A DNA stretch of 64,000 nucleotides from a virus (lineage: Duplodnaviria > Heunggongvirae > Uroviricota > Caudoviricetes): IMG/VR virus record IMGVR_UViG_3300002835_005179, positions 1 through 64,000 of that record; one strand, given 5' to 3'. The position numbers and the translations under genes were made by a program. Positions 20,321 to 21,123 of the stretch are shown in pieces. Each line of letters opens with the position of its first letter. The first letter of the stretch is position 1. The notes under the pieces were generated by a model that ran no database searches, was not told the origin of the DNA, and saw nothing but the letters and a program-made list of their open reading frames with translations.

Positions 20321-20421
20321 TTCTATGAAAAATATGTTTACAAGAGAACTTGTAAAAATATTGCATCTAGATCTGGTTCTAATTCATCTGGTTGGTCGGT
20401 AGCAACTTGGACTCCTACATC

Positions 20422-20607
20422 ATGAAGAAATCAATTTACAAAAGAAATATTGGGTCTAGGTCTTGGTCTGGGTCTAGGTCTTGGTCTTGGTCTGGGTCTT
20501 GGTCTGGGTCTTGGTCTGAGTCTAGGTCTAGGTCTGAGTCTAGGTCTAGGTCTGAGTCTAGGTCTGGGTCTGGGTCTGGGTCTTGGTCTTGGTCTAGGTC
20601 TAACTAA
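20422..20607 (+). CDS. micro-gene A1: MKKSIYKRNIG + (X-Ser)n repeat peptide (X=G/R/W/E)
   Basis: ATG in the header. The Ser-X frame is open to a TAA inside the next header. Confidence 0.45.
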   Translation: MKKSIYKRNIGSRSWSGSRSWSWSGSWSGSWSESRSRSESRSRSESRSGSGSGSWSWSRSN

Positions 20608-20611
20608 AAAT

Positions 20612-20854
20612 ATGATAAAGAAATCAATTTACAAAAGAAATATTGGGTCTTGGTCTAGGTCTGGGTCTAGGTCTGGGTCTGAGTCTAGGTCTGAGTCTTG
20701 GTCTTGGTCTGGGTCTGAGTCTAGGTCTGAGTCTGGGTCTTGGTCTAGGTCTTGGTCTGAGTCTTGGTCTAGGTCTGGGTCTGGGTCTAGGTCTAGGTCT
20801 AGGTTTAGGTCTGGGTCTAGGTCTAGGTTTAGGTTTAGGTCTGGGTCTAACTAA
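20612..20854 (+). CDS. micro-gene A2: MIKKSIYKRNIG + (X-Ser)n
   Basis: Same architecture, 80 aa, ends GSN-TAA. Confidence 0.45.
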   Translation: MIKKSIYKRNIGSWSRSGSRSGSESRSESWSWSGSESRSESGSWSRSWSESWSRSGSGSRSRSRFRSGSRSRFRFRSGSN

Positions 20855-20858
20855 AAAT

Positions 20859-21083
20859 ATGATAAAGAAATCAATTTACAAAAGAATTATTTGGTCTAGG
20901 TCTGGGTCTGAGTCTGGGTCTAGGTCTTGGTCTGAGTCTGGGTCTTGGTCTTGGTCTTGGTCTTGGTCTGAGTCTTGGTCTGGGTCTAGGTCTTGGTCTG
21001 GGTCTGGGTCTTGGTCTTGGTCTGGGTCTGAGTCTGGGTCTTGGTCTAGGTCTAGGTCTGGGTCTAGGTCTGGGTCTAACTAA
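20859..21083 (+). CDS. micro-gene A3: MIKKSIYKRIIW + (X-Ser)n
   Basis: Same architecture, 74 aa. Confidence 0.45.
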   Translation: MIKKSIYKRIIWSRSGSESGSRSWSESGSWSWSWSWSESWSGSRSWSGSGSWSWSGSESGSWSRSRSGSRSGSN

Positions 21084-21087
21084 AAAT

Positions 21088-21123
21088 ATGATAAAGAAAT
21101 CAATTTACAAAAGAATTATTTGA
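21088..21123 (+). pseudogene. truncated micro-gene A4 (header only, MIKKSIYKRII-stop)
   Basis: The header is present but followed by TGA and no hexamer array. Confidence 0.4.

Follow-up and report, generated by a model that had tools for sequence, protein, structure and literature searches.

We describe here a phage module, apparently of a new kind and not described before, in which very short genes for X-Ser dipeptide repeats (XS micro-genes) are paired with a gene for a small Sm-like (LSm) protein. It was found in a 64,000-nt stretch of DNA (positions 1 to 64,000 of the IMG/VR virus record IMGVR_UViG_3300002835_005179), which is referred to below as the window and belongs to a T4-like phage. 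As judged from sequence comparison, the module is composed of a gene for an acidic protein of 85–90 aa with a predicted Sm/LSm fold, followed by one to at least seven XS micro-genes, and is both widespread and essentially restricted to phages. We consider it highly probable that the XS genes make up a family of translated microproteins coupled to the Sm-like protein; the explanation as a whole, a coding module with a function at the level of RNA and protein, is in our judgement probably the best one, a view held with noticeably less confidence.

The XS micro-genes of the window occupy two loci (Table 1). The sequence-only reading of this DNA described locus A (20422-21123, + strand) as three full units, one truncated unit and one decayed unit, and all five could be read directly in the sequence. 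The second locus, B (46897-47275, − strand), is inverted relative to locus A and was absent from that reading. Tandem Repeats Finder reported a period-6 array of 104 copies at 20453-21078 and an AGACCT array at 46906-47241, the latter being the reverse complement of the array of locus A. The pattern GGTCTNGGTCTNGGTCT, with up to two mismatches allowed, occurs 129 times, with 0.01 occurrences expected by chance. Each array is preceded by ATG(ATA)AAGAAATCAATTTACAAAAGAA(A/T)TATT and, with the exception of the last array of locus B, is followed by AACTAA, AAAT and the next ATG; the start of A2 lies 4 nt past the stop of A1. The TGA of the decayed unit overlaps the ATG of A1, and the header-only copy is retained in every strain-level allele considered below.

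Table 1. Coordinates of the XS micro-genes, the Sm-like gene and associated signals in the window
Feature	Position	Strand	Description
XS micro-gene A1	20422-20607	+	MKKSIYKRNI + 25 X-Ser pairs + N, stop TAA; 61 aa
XS micro-gene A2	20612-20854	+	MIKKSIYKRNI + 34 pairs (3 Arg-Phe) + N, stop TAA; 80 aa
XS micro-gene A3	20859-21083	+	MIKKSIYKRII + 31 pairs + N, stop TAA; 74 aa
Header-only copy	21088-21123	+	MIKKSIYKRII, then stop; just upstream of rIIA (21166-23391)
Decayed unit	~20334-20424	+	header-like sequence, then degenerate XS codons that are not in the frame of its own ATG
XS micro-gene B1	47069-47275	−	MIKKSIYKKNI + 28 pairs + N, stop; 68 aa
XS micro-gene B2	46897-47064	−	MIKKSIYKRII + 21 pairs + GN, stop; 55 aa
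Acidic Sm/LSm-fold protein gene, conserved XS partner	20017-20283	+	88 aa
Diverged XS-type gene	46453-46674	−	73 aa, non-repetitive DNA; …FSGSWSGIGNSRRSGSWSWSGEIPKSESWS…SGSGSDSNSWSLS…, …FSGSWSGIGNSRRSGSWSWSGEIPKSESWSANLSSSGSGSDSNSWSLS…
64-aa ORF	46671-46865	−	basic leader (MLTTKRKSIRLRF), Ser-rich body
Sigma-70-like promoter of the Sm-like gene	19968-19996	+	TTGACG-17-TAAAAT; 10/12 consensus, consensus match only
Terminator-like hairpin and T-run after the Sm-like gene	20286-20310	+	11 pairs, 6 G-C, then CTTTTATTTG
Sigma-70-like promoter of B1	47282-47310	−	TTGACT-17-TATAAT; 11/12 consensus

The five arrays of the two loci hold 139 hexamers without a single indel: AGGTCT (43), GGGTCT (39), TGGTCT (38), GAGTCT (16) and AGGTTT (3). 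Position 1 of the hexamer is G in 55 cases, A in 46 and T in 38, and never C; position 2 is G in 123 and A in 16; position 5 is C in 136 and T in 3; positions 3 (G), 4 (T) and 6 (T) are invariant in all 139. At locus A the arrays count 25, 34 and 31 hexamers, in line with the 25–35 per unit given earlier. That every variable nucleotide is non-synonymous was borne out across the whole set, in which there are no synonymous changes at all. The accompanying claim that Ser is always encoded by TCT stood for 136 of the 139 hexamers, the other three having TTT (Phe), and did not extend to the family at large: TCT is invariant locally, array by array, as a result of concerted evolution and not as a property of the family. 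The residues at X are Arg (33%), Gly (28%), Trp (27%) and Glu (12%), in DNA with ∼35% G+C. The XS products are 55–80 aa long, with isoelectric points (pI) of 11.3–12 and net charges from +6 to +13; an AlphaFold2 model of one XS unit, made with the five window paralogues, had no confident fold (predicted local distance difference test score, pLDDT, 48).

Four of the six frames are open across each of the five arrays, and the unit start offsets (190, 247, 229 and 211 nt) are all equal to 1 modulo 3; the sequence-only reading had correctly noted both the open frames and unit lengths that are not multiples of three. The ATG of each unit lies in the Gly-Leu frame of the preceding array (20426-20854 and 20619-21083 on the + strand, 46897-47268 on the − strand), so that a +1 shift inside an array would bypass the TAA, fusing the products into (GL)n-TKN-MIKKSIYKRNI-(XS)n.

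Evidence for coding comes from arrays in other phages. A scan of IMG/VR for five consecutive GGTCTN hexamers returned at least 117 stretches. Among the matches listed, which come from >100 unrelated viral contigs, most arrays are preceded by an ATG and a short basic leader, e.g. MKRSLKQKW, MATKRTKY, MVRGLKQKY, MIRGKKQKW or MTSLRNIRQNRS. About 100 of the 140 array open reading frames (ORFs) retrieved from IMG/VR by the DNA pattern alone, again among the matches listed, have an ATG 18–60 nt upstream of the array and a stop 3–15 nt downstream of it, in the X-Ser frame. These ORFs are 40–110 aa long and often arranged in tandem; several have strong Shine-Dalgarno sites, some of them AGGAGG. Start codon, open frame and stop codon are conserved in one frame across divergent relatives, and the architecture proposed from the window alone, tandem micro-genes for MIKKSIYKRNI followed by (X-Ser)n, was seen again in many unrelated phages.

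The choice of codons was analysed in 80 loci retrieved with the LSm protein only, a search blind to arrays. Runs of six or more X-Ser pairs, starting 14–160 nt past the LSm gene, were present in ∼68 of these loci. The Ser codons were TCT (854), TCG (852), AGC (151), TCC (40) and TCA (22), the codon being constant inside each array and varying between phages. The frames other than X-Ser give different dipeptides for each class of Ser codon, as deduced from the hexamer types (frames were translated for the TCT arrays of the window only). Since AGC is more than one step away from TCN, and since X-Ser alone is constant across the classes, we conclude that selection acts on the protein. The commonest leader is M-R-x-x-x-K-Q-K-[Y/W/F], with 24 distinct contexts, and the codons of its KQK[Y/W/F] part vary synonymously (AAA/AAG, CAA/CAG, TAT/TAC). 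Residue identity was retained through synonymous or non-adjacent codon changes in the Ser positions, in the leader and in the diverged gene 46453-46674. We regard the units of the window as separate small genes, which are very probably translated.

The gene 46453-46674 lies on the helicase side of locus B. Its Ser codons are TCA (8), TCT (8), TCG (2), TCC (2) and AGT (1), and its Gly codons are GGA (5), GGC (1) and GGT (1), with no GGG; alternating Ser was retained despite the loss of NGG and of hexamer regularity. By its sequence the product is an XS-type protein, encoded by DNA that has ceased to be a repeat. The gene ends in a stop codon overlapping with the true start of the gp41-like helicase gene. 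The helicase ORF as listed (45063-46607, − strand) begins too early, at a GTG; the real start is an ATG near 46462 with an AGGAG ribosome-binding site, and the upstream part of the listed ORF is the 46453-46674 gene read in another frame. The 64-aa ORF that lies next to it is possibly, and only tentatively, a strongly diverged XS gene.

The partner of the XS genes, the product of 20017-20283, shows the layout of the Sm fold, with a helix at the N-terminus and, after it, five antiparallel beta strands that are strongly bent. The Sm1/Sm2 signature was not seen in its sequence: there was no match to a Pfam family even at an E-value of 10, and searches of PDB sequences with the single sequence and with a profile gave no match either. 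Membership in the Sm superfamily holds at the level of the fold and not at the level of sequence. The protein has a pI of ∼4.95 and a net charge of ∼−3, opposite to the charge of the XS products. We found 287 homologues, all of them unnamed and none with a Pfam family. In a library of 1.84 billion representative proteins the family forms at least 531 clusters at 50% identity; its members are nearly all stand-alone proteins of ∼70–160 aa, most of them near 90 aa. Relatives with two domains in tandem (P0121, P0126 and P0157) hint at a putative LSm oligomer; no recognisable extra domain was seen in the long homologues P0150 and P0230 in a search for fusions.

The search of 185,579 species genomes gave just 11 LSm matches, all on small contigs of metagenome-assembled genomes, which indicates that this is essentially a gene of (lytic) phages. 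The module was observed in T4-like phages, in small phages of 36–64% GC and in non-T4-like phages of ∼30–60 kb (e.g. MW202825). In tblastn with the LSm protein the single hit was MW202825, an uncultured 34-kb phage. In this record (MW202825.1, 5395-6010; L121), the only one of a phage in GenBank to contain the module, neither the LSm gene nor the first XS gene is annotated, and the second XS gene is annotated as hypothetical protein UOF82383.1. A third gene common to the loci did not emerge: around five diverse LSm genes there were just small hypothetical genes.

The association of the two genes was seen from both sides. Just upstream of the arrays in many loci there is, as in the window, a gene with a product ending in …IESFG(I/V)LK. 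With a profile of 30 homologues LSm genes were recognized in ∼40 loci that had been retrieved by the DNA pattern only, always directly upstream and on the same strand; an LSm gene is directly upstream in 32 of the 68 XS clusters found by this pattern. Conversely, a frame-independent detector of period 6 was applied to a non-redundant set of 56 LSm loci with enough downstream DNA; in 47 of them an array was found within 600 nt downstream, and XS runs were present in most of the other nine. The XS start is located at −4 with respect to the LSm stop (ATGA or GTGA overlap) in 15 out of 46 loci, and between −4 and +8 nt in 33 of them; a start that overlaps or abuts the upstream stop is a signature of translational coupling. 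Extra XS clusters may sit elsewhere in the same genome, as locus B does. In some phages a single LSm gene is followed by at least seven XS genes in tandem, or there are several clusters (L216, 6336-7751; L002, L024, L087 and L115). Assemblies often break or contain N gaps at such places; the copy numbers in public records are thus probably underestimates.

The arrays change fast. Contig L119, whose 8 kb around locus B match the window at 99% identity, holds a single unit of 27 hexamers at this locus, for the most part (GGGTCT TGGTCT)n, versus two units in the window. Alleles of locus A were collected from 16 independent contigs, found with the exact LSm protein and its 99% relative. Three contigs from JGI and ENA assemblies (L228, L229 and L231) have the three units of the window with identical X strings; unit A3 is missing from L227 and L230, in spite of 99.97% identity in 3.9 kb of flanks; four units are present in L226; in L232 and L233 a few X positions are changed; contigs of the 99% group have arrays of 31/34/25 or 33/25 hexamers. 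Near-identical phages, with flanks 97–99.9% identical, thus carry from one to four units with reshuffled X strings (L219-L225 and L226-L233), and all differences between alleles are multiples of 6 nt or whole units. The idea of concerted expansion or diversification at X, put forward in the sequence-only reading, is supported by this expansion, contraction and shuffling among strains; the possibility that the array is fixed and identical in all relatives, which the same reading had raised, was contradicted. Each body being a perfect hexamer array, hexamers and whole units are gained, lost and reordered by slippage and unequal recombination far more quickly than point mutation acts. Such shuffling of a few pre-existing hexamer types explains a variable X beside frozen synonymous sites, with no need for a targeted mutator.

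Contig L218 (ENA ERZ27247984 k141_1032481) follows the window from 17049 to 20487 and then continues with 46940→44158 in reverse. At its junction (3436-3470) NAMPT, the LSm gene, a header and six hexamers are joined to the flank of locus B, two small ORFs and the helicase gene, with 99% identity on both sides. This suggests an inversion of ∼26 kb by recombination between loci A and B; a chimeric assembly is also possible.

Several observations weigh against a translated module that works through RNA and protein. First, the X codons in the 80 loci are nearly all NGG (GGG 650, TGG 553, AGG 268 and CGG 250), the exceptions being 29 other Gly codons and 8 other Arg codons, while at the amino acid level X is about one-third each Gly, Trp and Arg. 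One explanation is that, TGG being the only codon for Trp, toggling between Trp, Arg and Gly by single changes would stay in the NGG box. Still, a purely protein-level model explains the NGG bias only indirectly, and there could be a constraint at the level of RNA or of decoding, NGG codons being rare and slowly read. Second, the Sm-like protein is acidic and has no sequence motifs of RNA-binding Sm proteins, which makes its RNA binding an assumption. Third, no Shine-Dalgarno site goes with the internal units of the window. Fourth, a terminator-like hairpin stands between the LSm gene and locus A, and locus B has no adjoining LSm gene; coupling is therefore not obligatory. Finally, the step to an RNA–protein assembly serving takeover or counter-defence is made by analogy and remains doubtful.

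The NGG bias and the self-pairing of the window RNA led us to keep a role at the RNA level as the main rival explanation, albeit with a small chance of being correct. The transcribed (N-G-G + 3 nt)n would then be functional by itself, e.g. by acting as a ligand with many binding sites, or as a sponge, for either the Sm-like ring or an RNA-binding protein of the host, and translation would be incidental or would only keep the RNA unfolded. The partner does have an RNA-chaperone fold; NGG is kept in every lineage irrespective of the codon used for Ser, with GGG making up 650 of 679 Gly codons and AGG or CGG 518 of 526 Arg codons; synonymous variation is nil within the window arrays, and their RNA pairs with itself strongly (minimum free energy −84.4 versus −60.6 ± 3.9 for shuffles, z = −6.1). 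This self-pairing, however, is specific to GGUCU and is not expected for GGAGC arrays, and no Rfam covariance model matched at the arrays. It is also hard to see why an RNA element should have ATG, leader and stop in one frame across very different phages, a leader peptide conserved despite synonymous changes, and after NGG a triplet that varies among TCT, TCG, TCC, TCA and AGC and yet always encodes Ser. In the gene 46453-46674 it is the NGG and the hexamers that were lost and the alternating Ser that remained.

The extremely fast gain and loss, together with the presence of the decayed unit and of the header-only copy, could also be expected from a neutral or selfish microsatellite, i.e. a slippage-prone hexamer grown in a small dispensable gene with no function of its own. 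Gene callers mostly fail to report the ORFs as XS genes, several of the ORFs that are called lying across the arrays, and the homology search with an XS unit was empty, which fits as well. We find this explanation improbable: frame, leader and stop are maintained; the module is retained beside an LSm family of at least 531 clusters, both in T4-like phages and in small ones with 36–64% GC; and X is balanced at about one-third each Gly, Trp and Arg even in a phage of ∼35% GC, where GGG should be disfavoured.

Still less credible is an element acting as DNA (a protein-binding array, a replication or packaging signal, or a dedicated recombination hotspot) with ORFs arising by accident. It was one of the options of the sequence-only reading, and what stood of it is recombination as an apparent side effect: the two copies are inverted and ∼26 kb apart, L218 joins loci A and B exactly as an inversion would, and the unit copy number is polymorphic. 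Any long repeat, though, is expected to recombine as a by-product. As a function the idea did not hold, since the motif differs among relatives (GGTCT, GGTCG, GGAGC, GGTCC, GGTCA) while the dipeptide is conserved; a motif kept regardless of frame and strand, as in an array of iterons or binding sites, was not what we found. Start and stop codons are conserved, and the arrays always point the same way as the genes around them and the LSm gene. The type III enzyme EcoP1I recognizes AGACC, which is GGTCT on the opposite strand; such sites were ruled out as a general explanation, because relatives use other hexamers. Lastly, an artefact in the assembly of a repetitive region, a concern of the sequence-only reading for which one may cite N gaps inside the arrays of some relatives (L216) and many contigs ending within arrays, can practically be dismissed, given that L228, L229 and L231 have identical three-unit arrays with identical non-periodic X strings and that each array is only 126–204 nt long with a unique X string.

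Coming back to a coding module, we propose the following scheme. Each predicted product consists of a conserved basic-aromatic leader of ∼11 aa (MIKKSIYKRNI in the window, M-R-x-x-x-K-Q-K-[Y/W] in most relatives), 21–34 X-Ser dipeptides with X nearly always from the NGG codon box (Gly, Arg or Trp, plus some Glu), and one or two tail residues. The first XS cistron would in most relatives be translationally coupled to the LSm stop by the ATGA or GTGA overlap; at locus B a sigma-70-like promoter would give a transcript starting at or beside the AUG; later cistrons may be translated by termination and reinitiation at the conserved TAA-AAAT-ATG. The XS chains may be disordered polycations with Arg and Trp as stickers and Ser and Gly as spacers, and the XS body could serve as a disordered multivalent binder of nucleic acids. 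The acidic, probably ring-forming Sm-like protein may bind the XS leader, or both may bind RNA. The resulting RNA–protein assembly might, in the early phase of infection, alter what becomes of host or phage RNA, in host takeover or counter-defence, with the hypervariable XS body being under diversifying pressure. One could speculate further on a new class of effectors, in which a ring-shaped RNA-binding scaffold is loaded with hypervariable polycations that capture or condense RNA or act as a decoy for a host defence sensor; we put this forward as a tentative possibility. Equally conjectural is a second part of the same idea, that coding by hexamers is a generator of diversity working without reverse transcriptase, which supplies each phage population with many alleles and drives large inversions between copies of opposite orientation.

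Both loci are among early-type genes, in the orientation of the adjoining genes, in a window that encodes tail sheath, rIIA/rIIB, UvsX, gp43-type DNA polymerase, gp41-type helicase and NAMPT. Locus A lies between the 88-aa ORF (20017-20283) and rIIA, and locus B has a 112-aa ORF and UvsX on one side and the gp41-type helicase gene on the other. The 112-aa ORF (47290-47628), upstream of locus B, was considered and rejected as an LSm homologue. The Sm-like gene has a strong Shine-Dalgarno site. The −10 element at locus B ends 6 nt before the ATG of B1, and the mRNA of B1 is thus predicted to be leaderless or nearly leaderless. The junctions between units have the sequence TAAAAATA and do not contain TATAAATA, the motif of T4 late promoters.

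Some other features of the window were recorded. NAMPT (17753-19276, − strand), just upstream of the LSm gene, is conserved in all strain-level relatives. In relatives the gene adjoining it, which corresponds to the ORF upstream of NAMPT, has a weak Pribosyltran_N match, suggesting an NAD-salvage gene pair. Directly after rIIB, at 24146-24220 (+ strand), there is a tRNA with anticodon CUA, of amber-suppressor type, labelled tRNA-Pyl by ARAGORN and matched by the Rfam tRNA model. Genome-wide recoding of TAG is unsupported in the window: 13 of the 77 ORFs stop at TAG, and in-frame TAG codons do not interrupt any large gene. The region 37828-38207 (− strand) gave a full-length match to the permuted two-piece transfer-messenger RNA (tmRNA) of alphaproteobacteria (RF04321, 99.9 bits; RF01849, 92.9 bits), which hints at an alphaproteobacterial host. 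At 52608-55793 (− strand), adjoining the replication genes, there is a gene for a 1061-aa outer-membrane beta barrel resembling TonB-dependent receptors, with a CarboxypepD_reg domain (PF25183, E = 7e-129), an unusual auxiliary gene for a T4-like phage.

Searches for known counterparts gave little. The region 19900-23400 had no megablast match among INPHARED phages; neither the LSm protein nor the XS units matched significantly in Pfam, PHROGs, NCBIfam or PADLOC; 5.8 billion proteins searched for homology to an XS unit gave no hit; and in the literature on phage hexanucleotide repeats, dipeptide repeats, microsatellites, small ORFs and phage Sm- or Hfq-like proteins we did not find the arrays or peptides described, a paper on LSm-like proteins of T4 (PMC12152347) being the one related find. 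A common gene family of phages escapes standard pipelines in this way, as gene callers skip or mis-frame the arrays, the bias filters of HMMER drop XS matches and low-complexity masking in BLAST conceals the array DNA. The inverted arrays may account for large inversions and assembly breaks in T4-like metagenomic genomes. The pairing with an Sm fold offers a concrete handle on the role of small LSm-like phage proteins, and the module is a natural case in which proteins are diversified by shuffling repeats in frame. Genomes with >99% identity have different alleles; hypotheses of an arms race are thus directly testable in time-series metagenomes. Sticker-spacer microproteins made of Arg, Trp, Ser and Gly are plausible drivers of bacterial condensates or of RNA sequestration.

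Among known systems, the Clf/Sdr serine-aspartate (SD) repeats of staphylococci and the serine-rich repeat (SRR) adhesins also have alternating X-Ser, for which the DNA is a short tandem repeat and the length varies from strain to strain. In the databases an XS unit resembled these repeats only; the similarity was compositional and below threshold (17–19 bits in NCBIfam, versus cut-offs of 999–2500). However, SD and SRR repeats are regions of large secreted wall-anchored bacterial proteins, are acidic or glycosylated and have Asp, Ala, Val, Glu or Thr at X, while XS proteins are stand-alone, 55–80 aa long, basic, encoded by phages and devoid of signal peptide, anchor or hydrophobic N-terminus.

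With bacterial contingency loci and diversity-generating retroelements (DGRs) the XS genes share a localised, very fast, repeat-mediated change of coding sequence between constant flanks. Unlike in contingency loci, the repeat never switches the frame off, because its unit is 6 nt; length and order of residues change instead. A DGR-like mechanism was rejected: there is no invariant template copy and no adenine-specific pattern, and the changes are indels and swaps of hexamers or units, including G to A at position 2 (no search for a reverse transcriptase was made).

Internal proteins of T4 and early genes of its hyperplastic regions are also small and basic, with a short conserved N-terminal leader, a highly variable remainder and counter-defence roles, and are located in variable parts of T4-like genomes. 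The XS leaders differ in having no L/I-x-E cleavage motif, and the XS bodies in being pure dipeptide repeats; the module is also present in non-T4-like phages of ∼30–60 kb, such as MW202825.

Dipeptide tails are known in the Sm world as well: eukaryotic SmD1, SmD3 and SmB carry Arg-Gly tails, and LSm4 or LSm14 carry RGG tails. The XS repeats, in contrast, are separate polypeptides, rich in Trp and made from tandem micro-genes, and the LSm protein of the window differs from Sm, LSm and Hfq proteins in being acidic and in its conserved motifs (NYIY-G-L-GVN, VYETG, ESFG).

In T4 itself, GoF and MotB.1, as well as Frd.2, are small early proteins with a predicted LSm-like beta fold and no assigned function, beside which no repeat micro-genes were reported (PMC12152347). 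These proteins are longer than that of the window and have C-terminal domains, and hhalign of the LSm profile against T4 GoF and against MotB.1 gave a probability of 0.2% in each case, i.e. no detectable homology. The only experimental lead on phage LSm-like proteins is that GoF(D25Y) stabilises mRNA carrying the 5′ region of gene 41 (PMC12152347). It is striking in this connection that the XS cluster at locus B of the window runs straight into the homologue of gene 41.

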